From positions 24,607 to 88,606 of the forward strand of contig JAURZE010000028.1 in NCBI GenBank assembly GCA_030653545.1: a stretch of 64,000 nt of DNA, in the 5' to 3' direction. This DNA comes from Nitrospira sp. (GTDB lineage Bacteria; Nitrospirota; Nitrospiria; Nitrospirales; Nitrospiraceae). Shown here in pieces: positions 6,179 to 58,797 of the stretch (positions are counted from its first letter, which is position 1; every line of letters begins with the position of its first letter). The notes beneath the pieces were generated by a model. The model made no database searches. It was not told the DNA's origin and worked only from the letters and a program-made list of their open reading frames with translations. Position numbers and translations under genes: made by a program.

Positions 6179-8790
6179 GCGGTGGCCTTTCTCAAGGAAA
6201 AAAAGAAGGTGGCGCCACAGTCTATCTTGCCCTCTGCCCACACCCGCCCGCCATGGCGGTGGACGATGCGCTGGACGATCGCCAATCCTACGCCGGTGCC
6301 TTCGAAATCCTCTTTCCGATGCAACCGTTGAAATACCCCGAATAACTTGTGCGCATATTTCATATCAAACCCGACGCCATTATCCTTGATGTAGTACGTG
6401 ACCGCATCTGCGTTCATCTCGTCCGGCAGCCACCCGACTTCGATCCGAGCCTCATCCCGATACCGAGTATACTTGAACGCGTTCGTCACCAAATTGCTCC
6501 AGACGAGTTTCAAGAGGCGCCGGTCGCCGTGGCAGCAGGGCAAGTCCTGCAGGGTCAGTTCTATGGTGCGGTTTTCCTGCACGATCCTCAATTCGTCCGC
6601 CGCCTCCCGCGCTAGCTCTGTCATCGTGACTAAACGGATCTCCAGGCCCTGGCGGCCCAACCGGGACAACTCCAGCAGATCGTCGATCAGCTCGCCGGCC
6701 TGCGCGGAGGCCTTGCGGATAATGGTCAGGCAGCGACGGGCTTCGGCGTTCAAGAGAAGGCCGTGATCTTCCTCGACGATCCGGCTGAAGGCGTCGATGG
6801 TGCGCAGGGGGGCGCGCAAATCGTGAGACACCGAGTAGGAAAAGCTTTCCAGGTCCTTGTTCGATTCGGCCAGCGCCGCCGACTGTCTCTTCAAAGCGTC
6901 GTTGGCAGTCGTCAACGCCGCGTCGCGTTGCAGCAGCGACTCCTCCACACGTTTCTGATCCGTGATATCCCGCGCGATCTTCGAGGCGCCGATGATCTTT
7001 CCTTGGGAGTTGACTACCGGTGACACGGTCAGAGAAACAATTAATTCGGTCCCATCCTTGCGACGCCGAGCCGTTTCATAACGCTCGATCACCTCACCCC
7101 GCACTATCCGTTCGAGAATGTGAGACTCTTCGTCCTGCCGCTCCGGAGAAATGAGCCGAAGCACGGGGTGTCCGATCATTTCCTTTGCGGTATGCCCGAA
7201 CAAGCGTTCTGCTGCGTGATTCCAACTCGTCACGATGCCCCGCAGATCGATCCCGATGATCGAGTCGTCAGACGACGTCACGATGGAAGCTAAATTAGCG
7301 ACCGCCTGCTCTCCCTGCTTGCGGTCGGTAATGTCAATATTGACTCCGCGGACCCGCGTCGGAAAGCCGGAGGTCCCCTGGATCATCGTGTGCCAACGCC
7401 CCATCAGCCAATGCTCGCTCCCGTCCGGCCACAGCACGCGAAACTCCTCTCCATCCCGCTCGCCCGTCTCATTGGCTTCCCGGAACTGCTGGAACACTCT
7501 CGGCCGATCTTGGGGATGGACCAGGCTCTCCCACGCCGCCTGGGTGGTGGGGAATTCTCCCGGCGGCAGCCCATACAGCGCCTCCATTCCCTGACTCGAG
7601 ATGAAGCCCTCCGCCTGCAGATCGACCTCGAATGTGCCGACTCGACCGGCTTGTTGGGCAAAGCGGAGCCGCGCTTCGCTCTCGCGCAAGCCCTTCGCCT
7701 GCGCATCCCTGGTGCGGAGGGCCGCTTCATAAGTCCCCGCCAGCGCCCGCAGGTGGTGGATCATCAGCAGCGCGATTAACGTGCCGGCCCCCAGCAACAG
7801 CGACAGCGTAATGCCGTAGAAGAATTGCCCGCGCCCTTGCACCTGACGACTCCGTTCATCCCGCAATGTCCGCTCGGTGGCAAGAAAGGCGGCGATCTTA
7901 TTGCGGATGCCGTCTATGAGGTGCTTCCCCTGGTCCTGCAGCGCGAAATCAGCCTGACCTCTCCTCGAGACCGTCATCATCCTTTCGGCAAGGGCTTTCC
8001 ACTGGGCCGTCAGGTCTTGCAGCTCCTCCACCACCAAGACCTGGGGACGGTTATCGGACACCAGCACGTGTAGGCGAGCGACCGAGAGATCGATATTCTG
8101 TCTCGCCTGCTCATAGGGTTCCAAAAACCGGCGGTCTGCGGTCAACAGATATCCCCGCAACCCCGATTCCATCTCGACGAGCTGGAGAAGATGATTCTCT
8201 CCCGCCATAATCACTTCATCGGTCTGGGCCACCCGTCCGCTGGCGTCCAATAACTGCTTCATCTGCCATAACAAAAACCCGGCGATGAGGAGCAATCCGG
8301 CAACCGGCACCCCGACCGTCATGATGAGTCCGGTCCGGCTCGGCCCGGGGCCGCATACACCCCCTGCCTCCTCCCCCGCGTCGTTCACATTCGCGCGGAA
8401 GCCGGCCCCAGGCGCCGGCCGCATATTTTCAATGACCGCAATAATGACGGCGATGGTTGATAAATAGATCCCGAATCCCCACAATTCTTCGGGGCCGGCG
8501 CTGAATGCAAACCGTGGTTCGATAAACAGCCAGTTTGCGGCAAGGTAGCTGACGAGCGCAGCGAGGAGACCCGGCCCCCATCCCCCGTACCACGTTGCTA
8601 GAGCTACGAAACCGAACAGGGTAGTAACCGGGAGCTGAGGACCCATTACGGGATCGAACAAGGCCCGCAGGAGTATCGCGCCGGCCGCGCAGGCCACTCC
8701 GACACCGTATGCCCGAAGCGTGGAACGCGCCCGAGCCGGCTGCGGAGGATTTTCCGCGAGTATAGCGGAACCCGAGCTGTCACCCGTCAT
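6175..8790 (-). CDS. Membrane sensor histidine kinase (multi-TM N-terminus, CHASE3-like, PAS x2, HisKA, HATPase_c)
   Basis: Hydrophobic N-terminal segments, then a CHASE3-like stretch (ESGLRGYLLTADRRFLEPYEQA). PAS/PAC units follow, then H-box FSYSVSHDLRAPL and ATPase N/G boxes. Confidence 0.85.
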   Translation of the reverse strand: MTGDSSGSAILAENPPQPARARSTLRAYGVGVACAAGAILLRALFDPVMGPQLPVTTLFGFVALATWYGGWGPGLLAALVSYLAANWLFIEPRFAFSAGPEELWGFGIYLSTIAVIIAVIENMRPAPGAGFRANVNDAGEEAGGVCGPGPSRTGLIMTVGVPVAGLLLIAGFLLWQMKQLLDASGRVAQTDEVIMAGENHLLQLVEMESGLRGYLLTADRRFLEPYEQARQNIDLSVARLHVLVSDNRPQVLVVEELQDLTAQWKALAERMMTVSRRGQADFALQDQGKHLIDGIRNKIAAFLATERTLRDERSRQVQGRGQFFYGITLSLLLGAGTLIALLMIHHLRALAGTYEAALRTRDAQAKGLRESEARLRFAQQAGRVGTFEVDLQAEGFISSQGMEALYGLPPGEFPTTQAAWESLVHPQDRPRVFQQFREANETGERDGEEFRVLWPDGSEHWLMGRWHTMIQGTSGFPTRVRGVNIDITDRKQGEQAVANLASIVTSSDDSIIGIDLRGIVTSWNHAAERLFGHTAKEMIGHPVLRLISPERQDEESHILERIVRGEVIERYETARRRKDGTELIVSLTVSPVVNSQGKIIGASKIARDITDQKRVEESLLQRDAALTTANDALKRQSAALAESNKDLESFSYSVSHDLRAPLRTIDAFSRIVEEDHGLLLNAEARRCLTIIRKASAQAGELIDDLLELSRLGRQGLEIRLVTMTELAREAADELRIVQENRTIELTLQDLPCCHGDRRLLKLVWSNLVTNAFKYTRYRDEARIEVGWLPDEMNADAVTYYIKDNGVGFDMKYAHKLFGVFQRLHRKEDFEGTGVGLAIVQRIVHRHGGRVWAEGKIDCGATFFFSLRKATA

Positions 8791-9089: not shown

Positions 9090-11672
9090 TCACTTATCCA
9101 ACCCGGCGCCCAGAGCAGTCCCTTTGAGCTTCGCGCCCAGCGTCTCGCGAATCACTCGATAGAGTTCATCCACCGCCGCCTCCTTGGTGAGCAACAGGGC
9201 AGCGCCGGCGTGTTTCATCGCCTCCTCGTTCGCGCCACCCGCTTGCACGGACAAACCAATGACGACGGTGCCCGGGTAGCGGGAGACGATTGCGGCCGTC
9301 GCATCAATGCCGTTCATCTTCGGCATATTGATGTCCATGACGACGATAGACGGCTGCACCCGTTCGACGAAGGCCACCGCTTCTTCCCCGTTGCAGGCCT
9401 CGCCCACCACTTCCACATCAGGATAGGCGTCCAGCACCGTGCGTAAGCCCTGCCGCACCATGGCATGATCATCCACCAGGAGGACGCAAATCTTCGCGTC
9501 CTGCTGGTGCAGGTTTGAGTTTGGAGTTCTGGGTCCTGAGTTTCGTCCCTGATCGGACAACTCAGCACTCAAAACTTGCAACTCAGAACTCGGCTCACTT
9601 GTGCTGTCTACAGGCAGCATAAGAGTGGCCGTGGTCCCTTCGCCCGGCGCCGATTGCAGATCGAACCACCCGCCCAGCGCGGTCATCCGTTCCCGAATGC
9701 TGAAGAGTCCGAACTTAGAGGACATGGCGGTAGTAGAACAGCCTGCAGCAGCAAGATCGAAGCCGACGCCGTCGTCGCGCACCTCAATGCACAGCCGACG
9801 CTCCCCCTCTTGCAGACGGATGTATACGTGTTGACAACCCGCATGTTTCAGCGCATTCATCAGCAGCTCACGAACCGACTGAAACAGGAGCACCGCGCAG
9901 TCATTCGACAGGGACCCCGTCGAGGCATTGCCGATCTCGACGAGCACCATTAACCCCTGGCGCTGCATTTGTTCGCCGAGCCACTTAAGTCCGGCCGGAA
10001 GACCATGTTCCTGCAAGACCGGCGGACTCAGTTCGGCCATCAAGGTGCGACTGTAGGTCAACGCTTGGGTCAGCACCCCTTCGGTTTCTTGGACCTTCTC
10101 CACTGCTTTCGGAGGTAAACCGATTCGTTTCATCTGACCGAGATTGAGTAGACCGAGCACGAGCAATTGCGTGAGATAGTCGTGCAGTTCGTCAGCCAGG
10201 CGTTTGCGTTCCCGCTGCTCGGTAAGGTTCAGCATCGTCGCGAGTGCCCGCAAGCGATCCTGCGACTGGACCAGTTCCTCGGTGCGCTCCTTCACCACAT
10301 GCTCCAATTGGCCGGCCAAGGCGCGGAACTGCTCCTCGCTCGCGCGTAAAGCCTCCGCTTTCAGGAGGCGGTCGGTGATGTCCTGCACCGTCCCGATGAT
10401 GCGCGTGGCGCGTCCGTTCTCCGCCGCGTCCCTTTTGCTGGTGAACTCGAGCCAGCGCGCTTCGCCATCGGACCGGCGGATGCGCCCCACAAAGGCGAAC
10501 GGCTCCCGCGCCTCTAACGTCTGGGCCACGGCCTGCTCGAAAATGGGCCTATCGTCGGGATGAATGAACTCTGCGACGAACCGGGCGGCAGTGACCGGCG
10601 GGGATCCTAGCGGCACGCCCAGTATCCGATACGGATACTGGGTTTCCCACAGGACGGAATCTTCGTCGGGCCGCCACGACCAGAAGCCCATCTGCGCGGC
10701 TTCGCTCGCCAGCAGGATGCGCTCCCGGCTCTGCCTCTGCGCTTCCTCCGCCTGCTTGCGCTCGGTGATTTCCTCCACCACTGCGCCAAACCCGACAATC
10801 TCTCCGCCCTCGCCATGCACCGGATACCAGCTCTCGTTCCAATAACGGGTGGCTCCCGGCGCGAGCGCCGTCTCGCCGCTGAACTCGTGATGGAGCACCG
10901 CCTCGCCGGTCGCGAGGATGCGCTCGGTCGCCTCCCGCACTGCCCCCTCCAGCGTGGGGACAATCTCCCCCACCGTCCGCCCGAGGTGCGCCGCGACGGA
11001 GATGCCGTCCATCTCGGCGAGCCGTTCATTGATGCGCACATACCGCAGGTCGCGGTCGAAGTAAGCAAACCCGACGGGCGCACGGGTGAGCAGTGTGTCC
11101 AGCAGCCGCAGCGCGTCCGCCTTCTCCTCCTCCAGCTTCTTGCGGTCGAGGATGTCGCGGATGACCTTGATGTAGCCGGTGCCCGCGCCGTCGGGGTCGC
11201 GCAGGGCGGTGGTGCTCATCTCGACGTGCCGCTCACGGCCGTCGGGCGCGCGGTGGATCAGCTCGCCGCGCCACTCGCCGCGCTCGCGCAGCGCCGTGCG
11301 CATCGTGATTTCAGCCTCAGCGCTCGGCCAGTGCGGGGTGAACATTTCGGTGAACGTGCAACCGAGCACATCGTCGGAGCGGACGCCGTATAGACGCTCG
11401 GCGGCGGCGTTCAGGAAAGTGATGCGCTCCTCGGCGTCCACCGCGATCACCGCATCGCTGACCCGCGCGAGCATCTCGCTGCGGAAGCGGGTCTGCTCGG
11501 CGTCGAGGCCTTGCAAGGTGAAGAGCCGCGGGCCGGCCGCACCCTCCACCACGAGCGCATCGACTTCACCTTCACGGATGGCGCGAAGCGTAGAATCCGA
11601 CTCCTCCAGCCGCGCACGCAACTCCCGGTTTTCCTGAAGGAGGGTCTGAACCGTGGGGGGGGGCTTTGCCAT
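9090..11672 (-). CDS. Hybrid histidine kinase: coiled coil - multiple PAS - HisKA_3 - HATPase_c - REC
   Basis: PAS/PAC repeats, H-box LADELHDYLTQ, ATPase boxes and a C-terminal NarL-class receiver (VLLVDDHAMVRQGL...VVMDINMP...LTKEA) with no HTH. It starts 14 nt after the kaiB stop. Confidence 0.85.
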   Translation of the reverse strand: MAKPPPTVQTLLQENRELRARLEESDSTLRAIREGEVDALVVEGAAGPRLFTLQGLDAEQTRFRSEMLARVSDAVIAVDAEERITFLNAAAERLYGVRSDDVLGCTFTEMFTPHWPSAEAEITMRTALRERGEWRGELIHRAPDGRERHVEMSTTALRDPDGAGTGYIKVIRDILDRKKLEEEKADALRLLDTLLTRAPVGFAYFDRDLRYVRINERLAEMDGISVAAHLGRTVGEIVPTLEGAVREATERILATGEAVLHHEFSGETALAPGATRYWNESWYPVHGEGGEIVGFGAVVEEITERKQAEEAQRQSRERILLASEAAQMGFWSWRPDEDSVLWETQYPYRILGVPLGSPPVTAARFVAEFIHPDDRPIFEQAVAQTLEAREPFAFVGRIRRSDGEARWLEFTSKRDAAENGRATRIIGTVQDITDRLLKAEALRASEEQFRALAGQLEHVVKERTEELVQSQDRLRALATMLNLTEQRERKRLADELHDYLTQLLVLGLLNLGQMKRIGLPPKAVEKVQETEGVLTQALTYSRTLMAELSPPVLQEHGLPAGLKWLGEQMQRQGLMVLVEIGNASTGSLSNDCAVLLFQSVRELLMNALKHAGCQHVYIRLQEGERRLCIEVRDDGVGFDLAAAGCSTTAMSSKFGLFSIRERMTALGGWFDLQSAPGEGTTATLMLPVDSTSEPSSELQVLSAELSDQGRNSGPRTPNSNLHQQDAKICVLLVDDHAMVRQGLRTVLDAYPDVEVVGEACNGEEAVAFVERVQPSIVVMDINMPKMNGIDATAAIVSRYPGTVVIGLSVQAGGANEEAMKHAGAALLLTKEAAVDELYRVIRETLGAKLKGTALGAGLDK
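9241..9480. repeat. Copy 1 of a 240-bp near-identical direct repeat (REC-coding)
   Basis: 12 mismatches in 240 nt against 14459-14698. 9307-9410 is a 104-nt perfect match. The adjacent 60 nt (9181-9240) is only ~77 % identical and 9481 onward is unalignable. Confidence 0.9.
11655..11663 (-). repeat. Homopolymer C9 (G9 on plus strand) in codons 3-6 of the kinase gene
   Basis: The minus strand reads ATG GCA AAG CCC CCC CCC ACG. This is the longest G/C homopolymer I saw in the window. Confidence 0.9.
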
Positions 11673-11686
11673 GAGAAATTTCCAGG

Positions 11687-12052
11687 TTAGGTGAGAGGGC
11701 TTGCCTTCTCCCGTGCCTTGCGAAGATCCAGCCCGAGGAGAATCTTCTCGGTCTGCGACATGTCGCCGATGAAGCGGCGCAGGGGCAGCGGAACTTTTTT
11801 GATCAAGGTCGGCGCGGCGATGATCTGCTCGCCTTTGGCCAGCGTCGGGTGTTGGGAGATATCGATGACTTCAAGGTCGTAATGTCCTTGCAGGTGTTCT
11901 TCGCAAATCTTCCGGATATTCACGATCGCCCGGGTGGAATGGGACGTGGTGCCGGTGATGTAGAGCCGCAGGACATAACGGGCCGTCGCGCTCCCGACAG
12001 TCGCTTGTTCAAATTCGGCGAAACGGTCTGTGGCGGGAATCTTTTTCTTCAT
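11687..12052 (-). CDS. kaiB: KaiB (distal copy, longer N-terminus)
   Basis: YVLRLYITGTTSHSTRAIVNIRKICEEHLQGHYDLEVIDISQHPTLAKGEQIIAAPTLIKKVPLPLRRFIGDMSQTEKILLGLDL aligns end to end with cyanobacterial KaiB. Confidence 0.9.
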   Translation of the reverse strand: MKKKIPATDRFAEFEQATVGSATARYVLRLYITGTTSHSTRAIVNIRKICEEHLQGHYDLEVIDISQHPTLAKGEQIIAAPTLIKKVPLPLRRFIGDMSQTEKILLGLDLRKAREKASPLT

Positions 12053-12056
12053 GCGG

Positions 12057-12353
12057 TTACTCTTTCACCGGCTGCACGTCAAGGCCGACGAGCACGCGCG
12101 CTTCGTTCGACAGGTCGCCGATGATTTTTCTGATCGGCTCGGGTACGCGGCGGACGAGCGTGGGCACCGCGAAGATTTGGTCCCCGGCGGCCAGCTGCGG
12201 CGTAATCATCAGATCAATGATCTCAATGCGGTATTGTCCGGCGAGGTGCGTCTCACAGATGTGCTGGAGATTCGCCAGGGCCGCGCGCGATTTCGGCGTC
12301 TGGCCCGCGACGTAGAGCCGGAGTTCAAATTTTGCAGGTGGCTCCTTTTTCAT
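12057..12353 (-). CDS. kaiB: KaiB (proximal copy)
   Basis: [40 protein letters not shown]...[35 protein letters not shown] 12353 overlaps the kaiC stop (ATGA). The upstream 148 codons of listed ORF 12057..12797 are an out-of-frame overlap with kaiC. Confidence 0.9.
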
Positions 12354-14098
12354 CGGCTTCCTTTCGTCCGGCTGTTGCCGCTTTTGATGCCGCCGCGCAG
12401 GGCCGCCATGGCGCCGGCGTTTTGCTGCGTGTTCATGGTTTGCAAGGTCTCCTGGGCGATGGCAAAGTTCACATCTTCCTCCGCGGCCTCGCCCTCGGTC
12501 CGGAGCGCGGCGATCTGCGCTTCGAGGGCTTTTCGTTTGGCGGCGAGCTGCCGGAGCTTGCGCGCGTGTTCCTCCTGGCGCAGCCCGGCGGCGGCGCGTT
12601 CCTGCGCTTCCTGCGCCACGCGCGCGGTGCCGGTGAGCACGCGGTCCCCGCCGAGATACACGGCCCGGAGGTCGATGCCCGCGTCGCTCAGCACGAATTC
12701 TCGCACCTGATTCGAGTGCGCCATGCCCCGCGATTTCATCACGTGAATCAAGCGGTTGCGCTCGCCGTTGAATTCCACATTGCGTAGCAGCAGCCACGTA
12801 TCCATGAGCGAGGACACGCCGACCTGGCTATCCTCCGGCGCGGTCGCCGAGGTGCCGCCGGACGTGAGGCTGGTGAAGACCGAGGTGATTTGCAACTGCT
12901 TCACTAAATCGATGAGCCGCATCAGCGTGGGCTTCACCTCCGCCTCGCTGTCGGCGAGCGACAAATTGCTGATAGGATCGACGACCACGACGCCGGGCCG
13001 GAACGCCAGTACCATCTCGTGCATCATCACGAGATGCTGCTCCAGCCCGTGCATCGACGGGCGCGAGCACTGAATCTGGAGCAGCCCTTTTTTCACCCAC
13101 GGCGCAAGGGCGATGCCGATGGAGCGCATGTTGCGTAGCAGTTGCTCGGACGATTCCTCGTAGGCGAAAAGGAGCGCGCGCTCGCCGCGGCGGCACGCGG
13201 TCTCGGCAAACTTCGCGGCAAGGCTGCTTTTGCCCGTGCCCGACGCCCCGGTGAAGAGCACGCTGCTGCCGCGATACACGCCCTGGCCGCCTAACATGGC
13301 ATCGAGCGCCGCGATGCCGGAGGGGATGCGCTCCGTGGAGGCCCGGTGGTCGAGCTGGAGCGACGTGATCGGCAGTACCGACATGCCGCGCTCGCCGATG
13401 ATGAACGGGTATTCGTTCGTGCCGTGCGCCGTGCCGCGATACTTCACCACGCGTAGCCGCCGCGTGCAGATCTGCTCGGCCACGCGGTGGTCGAGCGTGA
13501 TCACGCAATCGGCCACGTATTCCTCCAGCCCGTAGCGCGTGATCGAGGCCTCGCCCTGCTCGCCGGTGATGATGGTCGTCATGCCGCGGTCCTTCAGCCA
13601 GCGAAACAGTCGCCGCAGTTCAGCGCGGAGAATCGCATGATTCGGCAGCCCGGCGAAGAGCGCTTCGACGGTGTCGAGCACCACGCGCTTCGCCCCGATG
13701 GCATCGATGGCGTGCCCGAGCCGGATGAAGAGCCCCTCGAGATCATACTCGCCTGTCTCCTCGATCTCGCTGCGCTCAACGCGGACGTGATCGAGCACGA
13801 TCTGTTTCTTCGCCACGAGCTTGTCCAAGTCGAAGCCGAGCGAGCGCACATTGTCAGTCAGCTCCTGCGCATTTTCCTCGAACATCATGAACACCCCCGG
13901 CTCCCCAAACTGCGTCGCCCCGCGCACGAGGAACTCCAAGGCGAGCATCGTCTTCCCGCACCCCGCCGAGCCGCACACGAGCGTGGGCCGCCCGGTCGGC
14001 AGCCCGCCGCCGGTGATTTGATCGAGACCGGTGATGCCGGTGGGCGCCTTGGAAAGCTGTGGCGGAGGAGAGATCATCGGTCGGGATAGTTTTGCCAT
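12350..14098 (-). CDS. kaiC: KaiC, double RecA-type ATPase with extended C-terminal coiled-coil tail (582 aa)
   Basis: ATG 14098 has AAGGAG 8 nt upstream. Walker A motifs are GSAGCGKT (CI) and GASGTGKS (CII). Catalytic Glu pairs are MFEEN and AYEES. A Ser-Ser pair (GVSSLMDT) sits at the position of the cyanobacterial S431/T432 by hand alignment. About 60 extra C-terminal residues relative to a 519-aa KaiC. Confidence 0.92.
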
Positions 14099-14292
14099 GA
14101 GTGGTCGCTCCTTGGAATAAGAGGAAGATCCTATTGGGACAGGGCCCCCATGAGAAACCGTCACTCTTCAACGCACCGTGGCACCCTGCCATACTCCATG
14201 GGATTGTCCCGACACGTTGTGGGCGCTTCGTGCCGGCAGGGGTCCTCGTCTCCCGAATCGCTCGATATAATTCATCCCCTGCTTCTCCTGCT

Positions 14293-17200
14293 TCAGGAGT
14301 TTGGCGGGGCCGGCTCTATACCTTGCTCCGGCACATTTTCCTTGAGTCTCACATCCAGCGATTCGCGGATCGCCTTATAGAGGTCATCCACTGCCGCCTC
14401 CTTGGTGAGGAGCATCGCGGCGCCGGCCTTCCGCATAGACTCCTCGTTCTCGCCGCCCGCTTGCACGGACAAACCAATGACGACGGTGCCCGGGTAACGG
14501 GAGACGATCGCGGCCGTCGCATCGATGCCGTTCATCTTCGGCATATTGATGTCCATGACGACGATAGACGGCTGCACCCGTTCGACGAAGGCCACCGCTT
14601 CTTCCCCGTTGCAGGCCTCGCCCACCACCTCCACATCGGGATAGGAGTCCAGCAACGTGCGCAGGCCCTGCCGCACCATGGCGTGATCGTCCACCAGCAG
14701 GACCCGAATGCTGGCGGCCGCGCGGAGTGAGGGACTGGAGGCCGGGGATACAGAGGCTACGTTTGTTACTTCGCTGGCCTCTTGGACCGCGCCGAGGGCG
14801 GCGCGCCTCGATATTCGTGCCTGCGACCCCGCCAGCGGCAACCGCAGCGTGGCCGTTGTCCCGGCACCCGGCGCGGATTGCACCTCGAAGCTCCCGCCCA
14901 GCGCCTGCATGCGTTCCCGAATGCTGAAGAGACCGAACTTCGAGGACATGGCCATAGTAGAACTGCCAGCAGCAGCAGCAGCAAGATCGAAACCGACGCC
15001 TTCGTCGCGCACCTCAATCTGCAACGTCTCCTGCCGATATTCGAGCGAAACCCATGCTACGCCCACTCCCGCATGCTTGGCCGTGTTGATCAGTAACTCG
15101 CGAGCCGATTGGAACAGCAGCACGGCTCGATCCTCCGGCAACGACAGGTCTTCGGTCTCGATCCGGACCGTCACGGCCAGCCCATGCCGTTGCATCCGCT
15201 CGCCCAGCCAGCGCAGCGCCGCCGGCAAACCAAACTCATGGAGGATCGGAGGGCTGAGATCGATCACCAAGGTCCGCGTGTAGGCCAGCGCCTCGGACAA
15301 CACCTCGTCCGTTTCTTCGACCAATTCGTCGCGTCTCTCCCGCGGCTGCGTCACGCGCTTGCTTTGGCCCAGTTTCATTTTCCCGAGCACCAAGAGTTGC
15401 GCCAGATGATCGTGCAGCTCGGTCGCCAGGCGCCGGCGTTCCCGCTGCTCGGTGAGGGTCAGCTCCGTCGTCAAGGCCCTCAATTGCTCGTGTAGCTGCG
15501 TGAGTTCCTGCGTGCGATCCGCCACACGCTGCTCGAGCTCCGCTGCGGCCTGCCTGCGTTCGGTGGTGTCGGTGAAATAGCAGACCACCCCGACCTGACC
15601 GTCGGGCAAGGTGACCCGCTGCGTTTCCCAATCGTACGATTGCTCCACGCCCAGATCGTAGCGTCGTCTGGAAAATTCAGGTGAGATGTACCGCTCACCG
15701 GTCTCCAGGGTGTGCCGGAAAATGTCCGCGACTTGTCCGCCGACTTCCGAACCCCACAGAATCCTGACGACATCTGAAAAATCGCGGCCGATCAGCGGCT
15801 GCACCGAGGCGAACGCCGGGAGGGCTCTCGAATTGATTTGCTGCACGCGGAATTGGCCGTCGACGACATACATGCCGACCGGCGCCTGTTCGATGAGGGT
15901 GGAAAACAATGTCTCGTTCTGACGCAACGCCGCTTCCACTCGCTCCCGCTCCGTAATATCGCGTGCAATCTCCGCCGCCCCGATGACTCGGCCCTCGGCG
16001 CCCTTGATAGGCGAAACGGTCAGCGACACGCCGACGAGGCTTCCGTCCTTGCGCCTGCGGACGGTGTCGTAATGCTCGGTACTTTGGCCACGTGTGACCC
16101 GCTCCAGATTACGCTTCTCCTCGTCCTTACGGTCCGGCGGAAGCAGCCTCGCGGACGGCCCGCCCACCGCTTCCTCAGCCGTATAGTCGAACAGCCGCCG
16201 GGCCCCTTGATTCCAACTGGTGATGATGCCGTGAAGGTCTTTACTGAGGATGGCGTCATCCGACGATTCCACAATCGCGGCAAGTCTGGCCCGCGAGGCT
16301 TCCGCCTGTGTACGTTCGGTGATGTCCTCGATGACGAGGAGAATGCGGTTCATCCCATTCTGGCTGTGCTCGATGCGCCGGGCATAGAGCAGCATGATGC
16401 GGCGGCCCAGGTGTTTGAAGACGTGATCCACGCGGAACTCTTCGATACTGCCGTGAGACGGCTGAATCTGCTCCAGCAGCTCGTGCAAGCGCGGGATGTC
16501 CCACTGGCCGTTGCCTAAGTCGTAGATGCGCCGGCCGATCGTCTCGGCGGGCGCCACCTGGAAGATGCGATAAAAGGCGCGGCTGGCGCGTTCGACGCGC
16601 AGCTGCTCATCGAGCACGAGCAGCGGCTCGCGCACCGTCTCGAGCGTGTCCCCCGCGAGCTTCAGCGCGGCCGCGACGTTTTGTTCGTTGCGTTTGGCAG
16701 CGTCGATGTCCACCAGGACGAGGACCGCGCCGTCCACCTTGCCGTCGAGCGTCAGGTACGGGCGCACGCGAAGAGCATGCCAGTGGCCGCTTTTGTCGCG
16801 CACCTCGCATTCCTGCTCGCGCAGGTCAGCGATGACTCCGCCGGCCAGGACCTCCAGATCGAGCGGCGATTCCCCGCTGCCGGTCGCCACGAGGTTGTGC
16901 CGGATGTGATTGATCGGCCTTCCAATATCGGCCGCCAGCAAATCAAACTGCTTTTCCGCCTGCGCGCTGAACCGGCGAATGGTCAGATCGCGCCCCAGCA
17001 ACACGATGGCGAGTTTGGCCGAGGTCTGGAGGTTGACCAGGTCGTTGTTGAGGCGGGAAAGCTCGACGTTCCGGTTCGTCATTTCCTCGTTGACCGTGGT
17101 CAGCTCTTCGTTGGCCGATTCCAACTCTTCTTTGGACGTCTCGAGTTCCTCGTTGATGCTTTGCAACTCTTCGTTGGCGGACTGGACTTCCTCATTGGAC

Positions 17201-19497
17201 GCTTGGAGTTCCTCGTGGGCGGCTTCCTGCTGCTCCTGAACGGATTGGAGATACTCGCGGGTTTCGGACAGATCGGCTTCGAGTTCAGCGACGCGGTGCG
17301 ACTCCTGCCGCGCGGTCAGCGGCCGCGCGGGCGGCGTCGGGGGCGGCGGCGCGAGGGAGGCCTTGCCCGCTTCTTCGAAGACGACCAAAAAACAGCGCTC
17401 CCGCAAGTTTTTCAGCGGGATGACCGCCACGCCGATGGTCCGGGTCACGCCGTCGCGCTTGACCCGGACGCGCTCCGTGCGTACGGTCTTGTTGCCTTGC
17501 TTGGCTTGGTTGATGGCGGCGCGCAGCGGCAGCATCAGCCCTTCGCGCGCCATCTTCAATACATCGAAGCTCGCCTTGCCAGCGGGGGGTTCGAGATAGG
17601 CCCCCGTCGGCCCGCGGAACTGCAGCACTTGCAGGTCGTCGTTGATCAGCACCCCCGGCGGAGCGAACTGGACGACGGCGATCCGATCGGCCTCACGCTG
17701 AGCGTTGAGTTCGCCGCGGAAATCCTCCGGCGGATCCACTCCCACCGGCAGGCCCCTCTTCTGGATCGGACGCGGCCGCGGGCCGCGCGCATCCAGTTCG
17801 GCCTGCTTTTTCCCCGCCAAAAGGGGAAACCCCCGAGTCGGCGCGGCCTTCTTGGAAAAGATTTTGTGTTTCCGGTCCACCGGCTCGAAGAGGTCGGTGA
17901 ATTCGCCGACGGATTCCGAGGCGCCCAGCAATAAGTATCCATGGGGTTTGAGCGCATAATGGAACGTCGGCAGCGCTTTTTGTTGCAAGCTCGGCTCGAG
18001 ATAAATCAGCAGATTCCGGCAGCTGATGAGGTCCATGCGCGAGAAGGGCGGGTCGGCGATGAGGTTCTGCCGCGCGAAGACCACCATTTCGCGCAACGCT
18101 TTGTTGATGCGGTAGCCGCCGTCCTCCTCTCTGAAAAACTCGCGCAGGCGTTCGGGCGAGATGTCCTGGGCGAGCGTCTTCGCATACAGGCCCTGCCGAG
18201 CTTTCTCCAGGAGCTTTTCGTTGAGGTCGGTGGCGAAGATCTGGAGTGGGTGCGCGCGGGTGGCCTTCCGCGCGACTTCCACGAAGGCCATGGCCAGGGA
18301 ATACGCCTCCTGGCCGGTGGAGCAGCCGAGCACCCAGAAGCGGACCGGCTCGTCGCCGCGCTGCGCCGCCATGAGCTGGGGCAGGATGTCGCGCTGGAGC
18401 GCCTCGAACGCCTCGGGGTTGCGGAAGAAGCTCGTGACGCTGATGAGCACATCGGAGAAGAGCGCGTCGAGTTCCTCGGCGTTGCCCCGGAGAAACGCGG
18501 AGTAGCCCTCCAACCCTTGCTGCCTGGTAAGGACTATACGCCGGGCGATGCGCCGCTGGATAGTGTTGGACTTATAGAGCGAGAAGTCGACGCCGCAATG
18601 ATTGCGCAGGAGCAGCAGAATTGTATGGTAGCCGTCTCCCGCGCCTTTCCCCGGAGGCTTCTCCTCCTGCTCGGCCTCGCCGCGCGCCTGCCTTCCGCCC
18701 GTCGGCGCGGTTGCGCGCCCGCCCGACGGCAGCGGCTGGTCGTCATCCTGATGCGCAATCGCTTCCTCGCGATCCTGTTCGGCGCGCGTCGGCAAATCGC
18801 GCAGATCCGCGGCGACAGACGGATGCCTGGCGATCCGCGCCAGCTCTTCGGCGATGCCCGACGGCGACAGCACCAGATCGACGCAGCCCGCGGCCACGGC
18901 GCTGCGGGGCATCGAATCGTACTTGGCCGAATCGTCCTGCGCGAAGGTGATGCCGCCTTCGGCCTTGATGGCCTCCAACCCGAGCGTGCCGTCGCTGGCC
19001 GTGCCGGACAGCACGACGCCGACGGCCCGGTCTCGCTGGTCTTGCGCCAGCGATTCAAAAAATGCATCGATCGGCCGATGCGGCGTGCGCGTCCGCGCGC
19101 GCGGCCCGAGCTTCAACAGGCCATCCACGATTCTCAGGTGAGTGTCGCGCGGAATGATATAGACCTGATTGGCCTGGAGCGCCTGATTGTGAGTGATTTC
19201 GCTCACCGGCATCCGCGTGGCACGTGAGAGGAGTTGCGTGAGCGCGCTCTCATGGTCGGGATCGAGATGCTGCACCAACACAAACGCCATACCGGTATCC
19301 AGCGGCAAATGCGTGAGCAACTGCGTAAAGGCTTCCAGTCCGCCGGCGGATGCACCGATGCCGACAATGAGCATGCGGCGGCCATTGTCCGTCCCGTCCT
19401 CCTTCCCGCGCTCGACGGCAGGGGAAGATGAACGAACCGCAGCGGACTGGCGGCGCTGTGTCGCGCGAGCAGCGGTTGTTGTGCGGCGCGGTGCCAT
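14293..19497 (-). CDS. Giant CheB methylesterase - CheR methyltransferase - coiled coil - multi-PAS - HisKA_3 - HATPase_c - REC protein
   Basis: CheB motifs are GIGASAGG, VQHL and SGTASDG. CheR motifs are LGCSTGQEAYSLA and ISCRNLLIYL. NEEL heptads follow, then about four PAS/PAC units, H-box LATELHDHLAQ, ATPase boxes and a C-terminal receiver. The start is uncertain: GTG 19593 overlaps the predicted -10, ATG 19497 is chosen, and ATG before MLIVGIGASAGG is also possible. Confidence 0.85.
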   Translation of the reverse strand: MAPRRTTTAARATQRRQSAAVRSSSPAVERGKEDGTDNGRRMLIVGIGASAGGLEAFTQLLTHLPLDTGMAFVLVQHLDPDHESALTQLLSRATRMPVSEITHNQALQANQVYIIPRDTHLRIVDGLLKLGPRARTRTPHRPIDAFFESLAQDQRDRAVGVVLSGTASDGTLGLEAIKAEGGITFAQDDSAKYDSMPRSAVAAGCVDLVLSPSGIAEELARIARHPSVAADLRDLPTRAEQDREEAIAHQDDDQPLPSGGRATAPTGGRQARGEAEQEEKPPGKGAGDGYHTILLLLRNHCGVDFSLYKSNTIQRRIARRIVLTRQQGLEGYSAFLRGNAEELDALFSDVLISVTSFFRNPEAFEALQRDILPQLMAAQRGDEPVRFWVLGCSTGQEAYSLAMAFVEVARKATRAHPLQIFATDLNEKLLEKARQGLYAKTLAQDISPERLREFFREEDGGYRINKALREMVVFARQNLIADPPFSRMDLISCRNLLIYLEPSLQQKALPTFHYALKPHGYLLLGASESVGEFTDLFEPVDRKHKIFSKKAAPTRGFPLLAGKKQAELDARGPRPRPIQKRGLPVGVDPPEDFRGELNAQREADRIAVVQFAPPGVLINDDLQVLQFRGPTGAYLEPPAGKASFDVLKMAREGLMLPLRAAINQAKQGNKTVRTERVRVKRDGVTRTIGVAVIPLKNLRERCFLVVFEEAGKASLAPPPPTPPARPLTARQESHRVAELEADLSETREYLQSVQEQQEAAHEELQASNEEVQSANEELQSINEELETSKEELESANEELTTVNEEMTNRNVELSRLNNDLVNLQTSAKLAIVLLGRDLTIRRFSAQAEKQFDLLAADIGRPINHIRHNLVATGSGESPLDLEVLAGGVIADLREQECEVRDKSGHWHALRVRPYLTLDGKVDGAVLVLVDIDAAKRNEQNVAAALKLAGDTLETVREPLLVLDEQLRVERASRAFYRIFQVAPAETIGRRIYDLGNGQWDIPRLHELLEQIQPSHGSIEEFRVDHVFKHLGRRIMLLYARRIEHSQNGMNRILLVIEDITERTQAEASRARLAAIVESSDDAILSKDLHGIITSWNQGARRLFDYTAEEAVGGPSARLLPPDRKDEEKRNLERVTRGQSTEHYDTVRRRKDGSLVGVSLTVSPIKGAEGRVIGAAEIARDITERERVEAALRQNETLFSTLIEQAPVGMYVVDGQFRVQQINSRALPAFASVQPLIGRDFSDVVRILWGSEVGGQVADIFRHTLETGERYISPEFSRRRYDLGVEQSYDWETQRVTLPDGQVGVVCYFTDTTERRQAAAELEQRVADRTQELTQLHEQLRALTTELTLTEQRERRRLATELHDHLAQLLVLGKMKLGQSKRVTQPRERRDELVEETDEVLSEALAYTRTLVIDLSPPILHEFGLPAALRWLGERMQRHGLAVTVRIETEDLSLPEDRAVLLFQSARELLINTAKHAGVGVAWVSLEYRQETLQIEVRDEGVGFDLAAAAAGSSTMAMSSKFGLFSIRERMQALGGSFEVQSAPGAGTTATLRLPLAGSQARISRRAALGAVQEASEVTNVASVSPASSPSLRAAASIRVLLVDDHAMVRQGLRTLLDSYPDVEVVGEACNGEEAVAFVERVQPSIVVMDINMPKMNGIDATAAIVSRYPGTVVIGLSVQAGGENEESMRKAGAAMLLTKEAAVDDLYKAIRESLDVRLKENVPEQGIEPAPPNS
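14459..14698. repeat. Copy 2 of the 240-bp near-identical direct repeat (REC-coding)
   Basis: See 9241-9480. Same orientation, offset 5218 bp. Confidence 0.9.
17080..17226 (-). repeat. Seven in-frame 21-bp (heptad) repeats encoding x-N-E-E-L-x-S
   Basis: Plus-strand units are cagctcttcgttggccgattc / caactcttctttggacgtctc / gagttcctcgttgatgctttg and so on. The protein reads SNEEVQS ANEELQS INEELET SKEELES ANEELTT VNEEMTN. Confidence 0.85.
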
Positions 19498-19581
19498 ACT
19501 CGAAGACCTTGGAAAAAGGGCGATTTTATCTCCGCCGCCAAGGGAAGGCAATGCCTCCCCACGTTGTCTCCGCGGCTCTTC

Positions 19582-19626
19582 ACCATACAACACCAGCAGA
19601 TCGCGTCCCCTAGGGAAATCCCTAGT
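19582..19626 (-). promoter_or_regulatory. Candidate operator box (palindrome CTAGGGAAATCCCTAG, 19610-19625) plus -10-like TATGGT
   Basis: The 25-nt box 19602-19626 is 23/25 identical to 8864-8888. On the minus strand TATGGT (19582-19587) follows after 14 nt. The box lies about 105-130 nt upstream of ATG 19497. Confidence 0.4.
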
Positions 19627-19797
19627 TTTTCGATCCGCCTTTGCCCTCCCGAGCGGGATCCTGCGCTGACCGATGGACTAGGGAATCTCAGAGTGCTCCT
19701 CGCGCACCGGGTGCGATACAGGTGAACAGGTCCTTGCAAGGGCGGCCGCGCAAGGGATCCAGCGGCAAAATCATTCGACAAGAAAGGACGGTCTCAT

Positions 19798-20901
19798 ATG
19801 AAAATCGCTCAGATCGCGCCTCTGTGGAACCGCTTGCCTTCCGACGGCCTTTCGGACGCTGAACGGACAGTGTCGTATCTTATCGACGAACTCGTTCGCC
19901 GGGGCCACGCGGTCACGCTGTTTGCGAGCGCCGATGCCCGCACCAGCGCGAAGCTTGAACCCTTCGGCGCGGCGCCGTTCTCCCAGGGGCCGGCAAACTG
20001 GGGCCGGGCAAGCGCGGCGGTCCTGGTCCTCGAACAGGTGTTCGGACCTCGCGCCCACGAGTTCGACATCATCCACTCGCACTTTGGAGTCGACGGCTTC
20101 CCGCTGGCGCAGCCCTGTGCCACCCCGACGCTGGCAACGGTTGTGGAGCGGCTCGATGCACCGGAGTACAGTGCGGCATTCACCCCGTTTCAGGACCTGC
20201 CGCTGGTGTCGACCTCTCATGCCCAGCGGCGGCCCCTGGCGTGGGCGCCCTGGGAACAGACCATTTATCCCGGCGTGCCGGCCGAGCTGTACCGGTTTCA
20301 CCCGTGGCCCGGACAGTATTTGGCCTTTATCGGCAGTCTTTCCATGGACGGGGGACTGGGCCTCGCGATCGAGATCGCGCGGCGCGCCCACCTCCTGCTT
20401 CGCGTCGCCTCCCGGCAAGACCACACCGATGCCTTTCCGCTTTCGATACCGATGGAGTTGTTGAGCGCCGGCAACGGAGTGGAATGGGTCGGCGCGCTCA
20501 CCGAAGAAGAGACTCACGATTTTCTGGGAAACGCCCTGGCCCTGGTCTGCGCCCAGGACGGACCGCACGCCTCCGGACTCTGCGTCGCGGAAGCGCTGGC
20601 CTGCGGCACTCCGGTCCTGGCCTTTCACGGGAGCCCCGCAGCGGAGATGATTTACGACCATGTCACAGGATTCGCTTGTGAGAGTCTCGAGGAGATGATC
20701 GAGATGGTACCATTGATCGGGGATATCGATCGGAGAGAATGCCGGGGCGCCTTTGAGAAACGGTTGAGCGCGGAGCGGATGACGGATCAATACCTCGATC
20801 TGTATGCGCGCCTGACCGGCGCCGCCCCGTCGCACCGGGAGGACGGGGCAGCCGGCCGGATGGCCCAGGCTGATCGGAGGCCTGTGGCGGTTGCGGACTG
20901 A
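19798..20901 (+). CDS. Glycosyltransferase, GT-B fold (family 1/4-like)
   Basis: N-terminus MKIAQIAPLW...ERTVSYLIDELVRRGHAVTLFAS, and a C-terminal E-x7-E-like region (GLCVAEALACGTPVLAF). Confidence 0.8.
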   Translation: MKIAQIAPLWNRLPSDGLSDAERTVSYLIDELVRRGHAVTLFASADARTSAKLEPFGAAPFSQGPANWGRASAAVLVLEQVFGPRAHEFDIIHSHFGVDGFPLAQPCATPTLATVVERLDAPEYSAAFTPFQDLPLVSTSHAQRRPLAWAPWEQTIYPGVPAELYRFHPWPGQYLAFIGSLSMDGGLGLAIEIARRAHLLLRVASRQDHTDAFPLSIPMELLSAGNGVEWVGALTEEETHDFLGNALALVCAQDGPHASGLCVAEALACGTPVLAFHGSPAAEMIYDHVTGFACESLEEMIEMVPLIGDIDRRECRGAFEKRLSAERMTDQYLDLYARLTGAAPSHREDGAAGRMAQADRRPVAVAD

Positions 20902-20906
20902 CGCCT

Positions 20907-21575
20907 TTAGCGGGCGCGAGTGACCGAGGGCGGACAGAAAGTACGGACCATTCGCGTAACGCTTGTCGTCGCGATGGCGCCGAGGAGGGCTGCGACCATA
21001 TCTTTTTGCGCATCCCATTCATCGCCTTGCGTACCCAAGTAGGCCGCGCCCAACTCCGGGCTGACCCTGCTTGCCACCAGGGCTTCGATGACTTCGAACA
21101 GTCCGCTCTGTGCCAGCACCATGCTGACTGGAAGGTAGTCGGCCCAAAACCCCTTGAGTCCCGTGAGGCGCACGAGCACCTCACGGATCGGATAGACCAA
21201 CAACAGTCCGTAGGCACCATGCACCATCCGGTCGAAGGGGTTGCGGCTCAGATGCAAGAGATCTTGCACCCAGAATCCCGCCGGCACCTTCGCATAGGTG
21301 TAGTGCGCGCCCACCGTATGCAGCGCGAGAAATGCCGTGATGAGTAGGTACGACCAAAGAGATAGTTCGAAACGCCGGTAGGTCGCCGTCAGCAGGGCGA
21401 TCAGGGCGAGACTGAGAATATTTTCCACGAGCCAGTCTGCGCGATCGATCGGATCGATCGCCATTGCGATCCATAAGCCGGCATACACGGAGAGCATGCC
21501 TGCGAGGATCGAGGAGTTCGCCACCAGTATTCGGCCGTTCTGCCTGTCCGCCGGCCCATTCTGATTCTCCGTCAT
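20907..21575 (-). CDS. Integral membrane protein, DUF2238/YjdF-like
   Basis: Multiple TM helices and the motif LHTVGAHYTYAKVP that I associate with DUF2238. Recalled by eye only. Confidence 0.55.
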   Translation of the reverse strand: MTENQNGPADRQNGRILVANSSILAGMLSVYAGLWIAMAIDPIDRADWLVENILSLALIALLTATYRRFELSLWSYLLITAFLALHTVGAHYTYAKVPAGFWVQDLLHLSRNPFDRMVHGAYGLLLVYPIREVLVRLTGLKGFWADYLPVSMVLAQSGLFEVIEALVASRVSPELGAAYLGTQGDEWDAQKDMVAALLGAIATTSVTRMVRTFCPPSVTRAR

Positions 21576-21982: not shown

Positions 21983-22291
21983 CTAGCCGTAATGCGTGAG
22001 GGTCGTGATGGGCTCAGCGCTCAAGACCTCTCGGGAAAGCGACGATTCACTATCTTGTCTCTGGCGTTTGAGCGCTAATTGCGCCATAAAGTGATCAAAA
22101 CATCGCGGGCAGTAGGTATGAGTCAACCGGCATTCATTTCCGTCAATGCGGTGGATACGCAATAGGGATCTCAATGACATCCACTGCTCGCGAACCGCGC
22201 GAGTGGGCACATCGCTCTCCTCTCGATCGTTCCTGACCTGTAGGCAGACGCAACACATCGTAATCCATGCTGCCTGGTTCATCCTGTTCAT
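21983..22291 (-). CDS. Small Cys-rich protein (CxC ... CxxC, putative zinc ribbon)
   Basis: WITMCCVCLQVRND...W...LTHTYCPRCFDHF. Sense-strand codon usage is consistent with its neighbours. Confidence 0.5.
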   Translation of the reverse strand: MNRMNQAAWITMCCVCLQVRNDREESDVPTRAVREQWMSLRSLLRIHRIDGNECRLTHTYCPRCFDHFMAQLALKRQRQDSESSLSREVLSAEPITTLTHYG

Positions 22292-34305: not shown

Positions 34306-34386
34306 CCTCTGTCTTTTCTTCTGTACCGGTTAAGATTCAGGGCCATTCCTCCGATACAACTTGTGGGATTTTTGGGAAGGAGCCCC

Positions 34387-38731: not shown

Positions 38732-38770
38732 ACACCTTCCCTTTATAGTCGATCCACGAAAGGATACACC

Positions 38771-58623: not shown

Positions 58624-58797
58624 CGATACCTCACACCAAGCGGGACGGATTCTACGCAATGGCCGCCTCGAATAGCAACGGAGAAATTAGGCAGATCCGT
58701 GAGCGTTTCCCCTTACGGACCGTATTGAAGAATTCCAACGCATGGGCTAGCATGGCGGCCATTCGAGCCATTGGCTATTCCTGTAAGGGAGTCCCCG

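Follow-up and report, generated by a model that had tools for sequence, protein, structure and literature searches.

KaiA-less Kai systems and the Nitrospira locus

The kaiC2 subgroup of KaiC proteins is defined by a C-terminal extension of about 50 amino acids (aa) together with a Ser-Ser pair, and in this subgroup a coiled coil formed by the tail links two hexamers and takes the place of KaiA (Pitsawong et al. 2023, PMC10076222). The KaiC of Rhodobacter sphaeroides autophosphorylates without KaiA, and together with KaiB it acts as an hourglass set by the ATP/ADP ratio (PMC10076222). A KaiA-less operon of kaiC, kaiB and a PAS/histidine kinase (HK) gene occurs in R. sphaeroides and Rhodopseudomonas palustris, its operon status being predicted (Ma et al. 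2016, PMC4794148). As to partners, the PAS domains of KidA bind fold-switched KaiB, and PAS genes adjoin KaiA-less kaiBC (PMC9478674); in Pseudomonas, KaiC binds a kinase through a PAS domain (bioRxiv 10.1101/2022.01.26.477890). Here we analyse a kai locus of a Nitrospira sp. metagenome-assembled genome, in which KaiC, KaiB1 and KaiB2 each have a 100% match; for this genus the literature searched mentions KaiC only incidentally. The locus lies in a 64-kb stretch of contig JAURZE010000028.1, hereafter the window, whose numbering is used for all window positions, and its domains are assigned with Pfam and NCBIfam. In it, kaiC is followed by two kaiB genes (kaiB1 and kaiB2) and a PAS kinase gene (HK2), and is preceded by the gene of a hybrid kinase with CheB and CheR domains (the CheBR kinase). 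On the whole, the locus is probably a self-contained, horizontally moving four-gene KaiC2-type cassette which lies as an insertion/deletion block among resident paralogous sensor kinases, with the CheBR kinase as one of the residents.

The kaiC-kaiB-kaiB-kinase cassette

All five genes lie co-directionally on the minus strand, with the order and junctions first described for them. The cassette opens with kaiC (12350-14098, 582 aa), whose product has two RecA-like domains and matches Pfam KaiC at 6e-107, and which is preceded by a non-coding leader of 194 nucleotides (nt; 14099-14292, minus strand) with the ribosome-binding site AAGGAG at 14113-14108. Next, kaiB1 (12057-12353, 98 aa; Pfam KaiB 7e-24) overlaps the kaiC stop codon by ATGA, kaiB2 (11687-12052, 121 aa; Pfam KaiB 1.3e-25) begins 4 nt past kaiB1, and HK2 (9090-11672, 860 aa) begins 14 nt past kaiB2. 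The HK2 protein contains three PAS domains, HisKA_3, HATPase_c and REC; its N-terminal helix and PAS (aa 1-180) correspond to 11133-11672 and its REC to 9150-9485. Co-directional and tightly spaced, and with no kaiA among the scanned open reading frames (ORFs) of the window, the genes have the layout of the kaiC-kaiB-PAS/HK operons. The scan covered the genes of the cluster, ten ORFs on its flanks and, beyond 25 kb, 20 of the 38 ORFs with a length of 200 aa or more; among them neither KaiA nor methyl-accepting chemotaxis protein (MCP), CheA or CheW is detected. The cluster genes also show no SasA-type KaiB-like N-domain and no CikA-type GAF in Pfam and NCBIfam, as the preliminary description had noted. 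Compared with the R. palustris and R. sphaeroides operon, the order kaiC, kaiB, PAS kinase is the same, whereas the window has two kaiB genes, and its kinase is a HisKA_3 hybrid with a receiver. With the KaiABC/SasA/CikA/KidA system of Synechococcus elongatus the window shares the KaiC and KaiB folds and the principle of PAS or kinase docking; however, it lacks KaiA, the SasA-type N-domain and the GAF and pseudo-receiver of CikA, it has Ser-Ser in place of Thr-Ser, and self-sustained oscillation is not expected of it.

The window KaiC scores 729 bits against NCBIfam NF006799 (cut-off 408 bits). Its best match in the PDB is the R. sphaeroides KaiC (8DBA/8FWI, also 8DB3), with 631 bits over residues 15-570, the tail included, the alignment to 8DBA running to query residue 570 and chain residue 556. 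Cyanobacterial KaiC structures reach about 350 bits, and there the alignment ends near residue 495. The C-terminal coiled-coil extension measures about 70 aa (roughly aa 500-570). In the motif GVSSLMD, S429 and S430 align with the Glu-Glu pair of the phosphomimetic 8FWI. Among 12 homologues S430 is invariant and S429 nearly so, and G43-T50, E74/E75, K290/S291 and E314/E315, which include both Walker A lysines and both Glu-Glu pairs, are invariant. Judged by these features, namely the tandem RecA-like domains, the coiled-coil tail and the Ser-Ser pair, the window KaiC is classed as a member of the KaiC2 / KaiC_RS subgroup. Because it has the tail and the Ser-Ser phosphosites of the KaiC2 or R. 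sphaeroides type, it would need no KaiA. The earlier suggestion of a KaiA-less module of an hourglass-capable type is thus borne out by analogy, the closest structural relative being the R. sphaeroides KaiC (PMC10076222).

We then present an overall view of this arrangement across genomes. From one genome per GTDB species, the scan with the KaiC alignment retrieved 80 loci with identities of 61-86%, whose record titles name Planctomycetota (including Kuenenia), Verrucomicrobiota, Alpha-, Beta- and Gammaproteobacteria, Acidobacteriota, Gemmatimonadota, Ignavibacteria, Bacteroidota, Chloroflexota, Methylomirabilota and two archaeal bins. By record label, more than ten bacterial phyla are represented; 82 non-redundant KaiC-centred loci were collected, of which 78 are assessable. 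The order kaiC-kaiB1-kaiB2 is found by tblastn in 71 of the 82; of the other loci, two carry three or four kaiB genes and five a single one, and the remaining four are on contigs that end too early. Of the 78 assessable loci, 73 have the unit. Directly after the second kaiB, at a fixed offset, a gene whose start is homologous to the first PAS region of HK2 is present in 60 of the 71 loci with enough sequence. Across 64 aligned fourth genes, the N-terminal consensus reads L.AEN..LRARL.EAEETLRAIR.GEVDALVV..., followed by PAS. PAS itself is detected in 59 of these 64 genes, while the rest is made up of HisKA (36), HWE_HK (12), HisKA_3 (4, the output type of the window) or GGDEF with EAL (3), and REC is present in 37.

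These comparisons show that the downstream PAS kinase, which had been described as one arm of the system, is a real and conserved partner. Since the N-terminus of the fourth gene is conserved but its remainder variable, the portable, selected unit is kaiC, kaiB, a second kaiB and a helix-PAS adaptor with interchangeable outputs. HK2 is accordingly proposed, from its sequence and position, as the Kai-docking signalling partner, and the recurrence of the helix-PAS start points to the fourth-gene PAS as a putative general Kai-docking adaptor. The outputs are freely exchanged between three kinase types and enzymes of cyclic di-GMP. The module therefore belongs to the known KaiA-less, KaiC2-type kaiC-kaiB-PAS/kinase kind, as a widespread subfamily with two kaiB genes, and the cassette apparently spreads by horizontal transfer across phyla. 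In this way Nitrospira and many other non-phototrophs are added to the carriers of a KaiA-independent KaiC2-type timer. Among the carriers of the two-kaiB cassette there are also cultured ones, such as Ramlibacter, Variovorax, Acidovorax and Rhizobacter.

Two further observations concern individual loci of the survey. The kaiC coding sequence (CDS) of the window is 87-90% identical in nucleotides to those of bins labelled Kuenenia, Chitinophaga and Verrucomicrobiaceae (L006, L007, L008, L009); this cross-phylum identity is far above expectation and would reflect either a recent horizontal transfer of the cassette or mis-binned contigs. In L005/L015 (Rhodocyclaceae), the cassette is followed at a distance of 7 kb by a second, distant KaiC-like gene (28% identity; 18611-20173), which is encoded on the other strand and separated from the cassette by two GGDEF-EAL genes; the fourth gene of the cassette encodes PAS-GAF-GGDEF-EAL.

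The two KaiB paralogues

KaiB1 and KaiB2 are 47% identical, and KaiB2 carries an N-terminal extension of about 25 aa. Pfam PF07689 covers positions 1-81 of 82 in both proteins, and their matches to PDB KaiB structures score 84-100 bits, KaiB1 being closest to the R. sphaeroides KaiB (8FWJ_M, KaiB_RS; 100 bits, against 89 bits for KaiB2). The NCBIfam equivalog 'circadian clock protein KaiB', which is of the cyanobacterial type, is not reached by either (94.3 and 93.6 bits against a cut-off of 110), and the NCBI label for both is 'KaiB family protein'. In most related loci, the gene right behind kaiC is an orthologue of kaiB1 (58-86% identity). The kaiB2 genes form an orthologue group of their own, with lengths of 113-126 aa and a mean column identity of 74%, and occupy the second position in 71 of the 78 assessable loci. 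In the literature searched, we found no description of tandem kaiB genes outside cyanobacteria.

On the whole, the Kai part of the locus is like the R. sphaeroides system (8DBA, 8FWI, 8FWJ; PMC10076222) in the coiled-coil KaiC tail, the Ser-Ser pair, the absence of KaiA and a KaiB1 nearest to KaiB_RS. It differs in having a second, ancient KaiB with an N-terminal extension and a nitrite-oxidising host. The retention of two KaiBs thus raises a question that the single-KaiB R. sphaeroides model cannot answer. One solution, which we rate as unlikely, would be two ancient paralogues with split roles, the one regulating KaiC and the other serving as an adaptor to PAS or REC partners.

Some related loci depart from the two-gene arrangement. 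In L172 (8639-8758), L173 (2799-2918) and L176 (2251-2370), with KaiC at 86-87% identity, what is left of the first kaiB is a 39-codon ORF that continues to overlap the stop codon of kaiC, and the KaiB2-type gene (113 aa) is the sole intact copy; L035 likewise retains only a KaiB2-like gene. The single kaiB genes of L068, L069 and L080 are nearer to KaiB1. At least three tandem kaiB copies follow kaiC in L077 (11776-12933) and L081 (6706-8182), which come from an uncultured archaeon and a Planctomycetota bin, respectively.

Proposed mode of action

By analogy with R. sphaeroides, KaiC hexamers of the cassette would pair through the C-terminal coiled coil, the A-loop would stay exposed, and S429/S430 would be autophosphorylated without KaiA. 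KaiB would then bind the CI ring of phosphorylated KaiC, raise its ATPase activity and drive dephosphorylation. The ATP/ADP ratio would set the direction, with dephosphorylation as ATP/ADP falls, so that the system would be an environmentally reset hourglass rather than a free-running clock. Finally, the helix and PAS of the fourth gene may read the state of KaiC and KaiB and modulate the HisKA_3 kinase and its NarL-type receiver, which would feed a phosphorelay; this read-out step is suggested because the synteny is conserved and because PAS domains bind Kai proteins in the KidA and Pseudomonas systems.

An insertion/deletion block among resident sensor kinases

The kinases around the cassette form a family. 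The C-terminal halves of the CheBR kinase and HK2 are 52% identical over 581 aa and their REC domains 87-90%, so that their description as paralogous kinases holds. The receivers of these two kinases are NarL-type and carry the DD...D motif. HK3 (3957-6047, minus strand), the third paralogue in this transmitter family, is a resident kinase of the type REC-HisKA_3-HATPase-REC, with a core 46-50% identical to the cores of the CheBR kinase and HK2. Between HK3 and HK2 there lies another resident sensor kinase outside the kai cassette, with the domains DUF4118-CHASE3-PAS-HisKA-HATPase (6175-8790, minus strand). Five REC domains without a DNA-binding output had been counted between 3.9 and 19.6 kb; the lack of a DNA-binding output is correct, while the number of REC domains is four (one in the CheBR kinase, one in HK2 and two in HK3; Pfam, NCBIfam).

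The metagenome scan with the CheB-CheR-PAS_10 region yields 80 relatives (L086-L165) of the CheBR kinase. Among them, the closest long contigs (L089/L091, L092, L093 and L095, 78-81% identity) have no kaiC, kaiB or HK2. With the window they share the upstream flank, consisting of a Crp-family gene and ORFs matching 21983-22291 and 19771-21018, and the downstream flank, consisting of HK3 (67-74%) and an outer membrane protein gene (79-89%), the HK3 orthologues at 67-74% identity being those of L091-L093. In L092 and L093 the CheBR kinase gene is directly followed by the orthologue of the CHASE3 kinase gene (72-79% nt identity over the 3' half), and therefore the window differs from its kai-less relatives by a clean 5.2-kb block of kaiC, kaiB, kaiB and HK2. 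This insertion/deletion polymorphism is a direct observation, as are the anatomy, the family assignment and the synteny of the cassette.

The REC sequences of the two kinases (14365-14703 and 9150-9485, minus strand) are direct repeats which bracket the 5.2-kb block exactly. They are 88.6% identical in DNA over 368 nt, compared with 68.6% in the kinase core. When the intergenic sequences are aligned, the gap behind HK2 has a weak likeness to the one behind the CheBR kinase of L091 and L093 (scores of 29-31, with shuffles at 19-21 ± 2), and the window gap behind the CheBR kinase resembles none of the relatives. REC-REC recombination is thus a plausible route by which the block may have been gained or lost. 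Exchange within the family is also seen elsewhere: the CheBR kinases of L169, L174, L087 and L093 have an HK2-like core, those of L089, L091, L092 and L095 have a core like that of the window CheBR kinase, and in L169 the fourth gene (12409-13665) combines the Kai-type PAS with a core of the HK3 kind (76% identity with the window HK3). Such mosaics indicate frequent recombination among the clustered HisKA_3 kinases.

Taken from the side of KaiC, relatives at 86-88% identity are found in other contexts (L001/2, L172/3, L176 and L177). For example, an extracytoplasmic function (ECF) sigma factor, a HisKA_3 kinase and a REC gene lie upstream of kaiC in L001/2, while kaiC stands behind a Ser/Thr kinase-TPR protein gene in L172 and beside a divergent Rex-like regulator gene in L177. 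The synteny comparison proposed in the preliminary description is thus answered in two ways: one sister lineage retains kaiC next to the CheBR kinase, but the kai block is missing from orthologous CheBR loci and the other KaiC relatives have other neighbours. The association is facultative and lineage-specific, and either partner clearly works without the other.

The sister lineage is represented by L169 and L174 (KaiC 89-90% identical in aa and 92% in nt). L170, L171 and L175 (KaiC 89-90%) are on contigs cut inside the gene upstream of kaiC and are grouped with them; as the leaders of all five are near-identical to each other, they are counted as one lineage. The sister leader has 227 nt, of which the last 190 are 92% identical to the window leader (14099-14288). 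This identity equals the level of the kaiC CDS, compared with 82% at the 3' end of the upstream kinase gene and 82-87% in neighbouring coding DNA. The leader is not upstream of kaiC in any other fetched locus. From this conservation, it probably holds the promoter or operator of kaiC itself. The consensus scan for promoters and terminators (8.7-20.2 kb) gives no sigma-70 site or terminator in the kaiC leader, with counts no higher than in shuffles, and is uninformative on operon structure. A structured riboregulator in the leader was also considered and is not supported, given the lack of a match to any Rfam family, in a run over the whole window, and a predicted RNA fold no stabler than shuffles (z = +1.0).

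Observations against the cassette reading and alternative readings

Several observations weigh against a self-contained hourglass cassette among resident kinases. The hourglass behaviour is extrapolated from a homologue, whose alignment spans the whole protein with 631 bits; a day-night role is not obvious in the non-phototrophic Nitrospira; and the R. sphaeroides model system has one KaiB, which leaves the role of the second conserved KaiB unexplained. AlphaFold2 predictions from paralogue-specific alignments give both KaiBs a ground-state-like element order at low confidence (predicted local distance difference test, pLDDT, 69 for KaiB1 and 59 for KaiB2), with which the fold state is unassignable. 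As to the neighbours, L169 and L174 of the sister lineage also have kaiC next to the CheBR kinase, together with the conserved leader; CheB-CheR genes are repeatedly close to kai in further arrangements (L166, L083, L003 and L130); and the RECs on either side of kai share 90% identity in the window and 86% in L166, compared with 69-83% between them and their orthologues, so that a shared function or some cross-talk is possible.

For the KaiBC or KaiC of Legionella and Pseudomonas, a function as a switch for stress or energy state has been put forward. Of the alternatives, the most likely keeps the same anatomy and changes its physiological meaning, so that the cassette would be a switch for stress or energy state (ATP/ADP) in a chemolithotroph, not a day-night timer; we regard this as a serious but still tentative possibility. 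Besides the non-phototrophic Nitrospira, many of the surveyed carriers are heterotrophs or anaerobes (Kuenenia, Ignavibacteria, Bacteroidales, Methanoperedens), and the window neighbours include catalase, cytochrome c peroxidase and disulphide reductase. The R. sphaeroides system is itself driven by ATP/ADP (PMC10076222), and Pseudomonas KaiC homologues raise stress resistance via a kinase and a single-domain receiver (bioRxiv 10.1101/2022.01.26.477890). The Pseudomonas modules of KaiC, HK and single-domain response regulator resemble the window in having KaiC beside a PAS kinase and receivers without a DNA-binding output; however, they have no KaiB, and their KaiCs are classed into three groups of their own (bioRxiv 10.1101/2022.01.26.477890). 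The Pseudomonas and Legionella proteins presumably belong to other KaiC groups and lack the two-KaiB cassette, and in R. palustris, which has the closest described operon, there is a KaiC-dependent fitness under 24-h cycles (PMC4794148).

In the second alternative, which was the proposal of the preliminary description, the timer would have two dedicated arms, the CheBR kinase and the downstream PAS kinase, for input and output, and its timing state would be coupled to the reversible methylation of Glu, either in KaiC/KaiB or in a kinase. The CheBR kinase of this proposal (14293-19593, minus strand) is a hybrid of CheB, CheR, coil, PAS_10, three PAS, HisKA_3, HATPase and REC with 1766 aa when counted from GTG at 19593. 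Its REC corresponds to 14365-14703. The cluster had been drawn to 19626, which is too far, 19593 being the earliest possible start; ATG at 19497 is the likelier start because of a promoter-like site at 19551-19523. CheB (18841-19365) matches CheB_methylest over its full length (1-174 of 174, 5e-56), and CheR (17866-18630) matches CheR_N at 8.6e-10 and CheR at 1e-55. The catalytic motifs reported earlier are all present (GASAGG at aa 80, VQHL at 107, SDG at 200, GCSTGQEAYS at 423 and CRNLLIY at 525); the Ser, His and Asp of CheB come in the right order and spacing, with a CheB-like Ser-His distance, and the two regions align in full length with PDB structures of CheB (1CHD, 1A2O) and CheR (5Y4R, 1AF7, 1BC5). 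Compared with chemotaxis CheR and CheB acting on MCPs, the CheR (N-terminal and S-adenosylmethionine-binding domains) and CheB look intact and Glu-Glu sites stand in a heptad coil. In contrast to chemotaxis, both enzymes are fused in one polypeptide with PAS and a hybrid kinase, and neither MCP nor CheA or CheW occurs among the scanned ORFs. CheB also has no regulatory receiver N-terminal of the esterase in Pfam, the sole REC of the protein being at aa 1631-1743.

The coil in question is a Glu-Glu-rich heptad 'NEEL' coiled coil between CheR and PAS_10 (17059-17286, aa about 770-845; …EELQASNEEVQSANEELQSINEELETSKEELESANEEL…). It has four matches to [ASTG]xxEE[LIVM]xx[ASTG], which we take to be a relaxed form of the published MCP methylation consensus; the coil is Glu-rich in any case. 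All 58 evaluated CheBR relatives have at least two such matches between CheR and PAS_10, with a median of four, and no match is found in KaiC, KaiB1, KaiB2, HK2, the CHASE3 kinase or HK3. We know of no description of a conserved Glu-Glu coil at this place. Because the motif is matched in the coil of all 58 relatives and in none of the Kai proteins, and because the scanned ORFs include no MCP, CheA or CheW, self-methylation is favoured over Kai methylation: most likely the CheR and CheB domains would act on the kinase's own coil as an adaptation device, and we infer that the coil is a likelier methylation target than the Kai proteins.

The proposal of two arms gains from the co-direction and short gaps of the five genes, from the adjacency and 92% conserved leader in L169, L174, L170, L171 and L175, and from the 90% identity of the two RECs. 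It also gains from the recurrence of CheB-CheR genes near kai. For example, L166 (KaiC 75%) has on one strand a GAF...HisKA_3-REC kinase, kaiC, kaiB, kaiB, a PAS-HisKA_3-REC kinase, a REC-HisKA_3 kinase and a CheBR kinase; in L083 (Anaerolineales), a kinase-less CheB-CheR-PAS_10 protein is encoded two genes upstream of kaiC; in L003 (Verrucomicrobiota), a partial CheB, a remnant fused to a PAS-GAF kinase, comes right after the PAS kinase; and in L130 a CheBR gene is followed by a KaiC at 50% identity. In total, kaiC is present in two of the 80 CheBR-centred loci, with about 0.44 Mb of flanks, where about 0.1 would be expected for a single-copy gene; however, sensor-kinase genes cluster anyway, which inflates such co-location. 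Other observations are against two arms. Orthologous CheBR kinases stand in the same synteny without the kai block, and the KaiC relatives at 86-88% identity have other neighbours. CheB or CheR sequence occurs within 10 kb in only about five of the 82 kai loci (L001/2, with CheB only, at 9 kb; L003; L033 and L076, at 8-9 kb; and L083), so that more than 70 cassettes are without either. In L166 the gene upstream of kaiC encodes a different GAF/PAS kinase with the same kind of homogenised REC, and any shared feature is thus the REC and not the methylation module. No MCP-like methylation motif is present in the Kai proteins, and no relevant paper on Kai and CheB/CheR was found among the literature searched. 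We therefore consider dedicated arms with coupled methylation unlikely. Of the original claim, the downstream PAS kinase stands as an arm, while the CheBR kinase as the other arm lacks comparative support, and so does the wiring of Glu methylation to the timer. The CheBR kinase is at most a lineage-specific extra input to the timer, being a resident gene in the cassette reading.

A narrower form, confined to this Nitrospira clade, is a methylation-timer circuit in which coil methylation would serve as slow memory and KaiC as energy-reset timer, the two converging via the near-identical RECs; we think it improbable. If true, the CheB-CheR coupling would join two bacterial memory chemistries, receptor-type methylation and KaiC phosphorylation, and would be the first link of a methylation-based adaptation module to a Kai timer. 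It is weakly supported, and we treat it as a low-probability lead, not a finding.

The last alternative takes the flanking REC domains, not CheB-CheR, as the real link. Receiver-like domains bind KaiB in cyanobacteria, and a receiver shared by the kinase just upstream of kaiC, whatever its sensor part, and by the downstream PAS kinase could dock on KaiB/KaiC in the manner of the CikA and KaiA pseudo-receivers. We hold this to be quite unlikely. In its favour, both genomes with HisKA_3-REC kinases on the two sides of kaiC have their closest REC pair there (90% identity in the window; 86% in L166, at about 6130-6500 and 10420-10780; 69-83% to orthologues), a NarL-type REC immediately precedes kaiC in the window, L166, L001 and L071, and 37 of the 64 fourth genes end in REC. 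Against it, neutral gene conversion readily affects direct repeats at a distance of 5 kb, and these repeats can also account for the insertion/deletion polymorphism (with the weak post-HK2 similarity in L091 and L093). Moreover, for most cassettes no match to the query REC/HisKA_3 core was found within 4 kb upstream of kaiC, in a search by which divergent receivers could be missed.

With regard to the REC likeness itself, gene conversion is the simplest explanation, and a shared docking or phosphotransfer partner is possible. Whatever maintains the likeness would concern the REC and not the methylation module, because the upstream kinase of L166, of the GAF/PAS type, is without CheB-CheR and has the same homogenised REC. 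Recent gene conversion as the sole cause was considered and set aside, as the identity is heterogeneous and the repeats are not identical; neither conversion nor selection is singled out. A general rule that a HisKA_3-REC kinase stands upstream of kaiC holds only in the window, L166, L001/2 and L071, and is rejected as a feature of the family. A KaiA3-like reading of the upstream receiver is likewise rejected, since no KaiA-like C-terminal domain follows the REC.

Neighbouring genes in the window

Oxidative-stress and redox genes are abundant around the cluster, namely a catalase, a di-haem cytochrome c peroxidase and a pyridine-nucleotide disulphide oxidoreductase. The catalase is a large-subunit one with a DJ-1/PfpI C-domain and is cut by the window start, and an HDOD-GAF signalling protein is also among the neighbours; jointly, these genes occupy 12-1592, 32325-33398, 37340-38965 and 34078-35934. 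Tandem genes of TraT-like lipoproteins (57158-58659, minus strand; Pfam TraT 1.6e-40 and 7e-33) lie amid an otherwise housekeeping stretch. Two long ORFs have no Pfam match, one at 58771-60963 (730 aa) and the other at 19771-21018 (415 aa). One match to the 415-aa ORF, among the relatives named next, overlaps a called glycosyltransferase-like gene. The 415-aa ORF is kept, at 46-50% identity, directly upstream of the CheBR kinase in L087, L088, L092, L095, L097 and L169.

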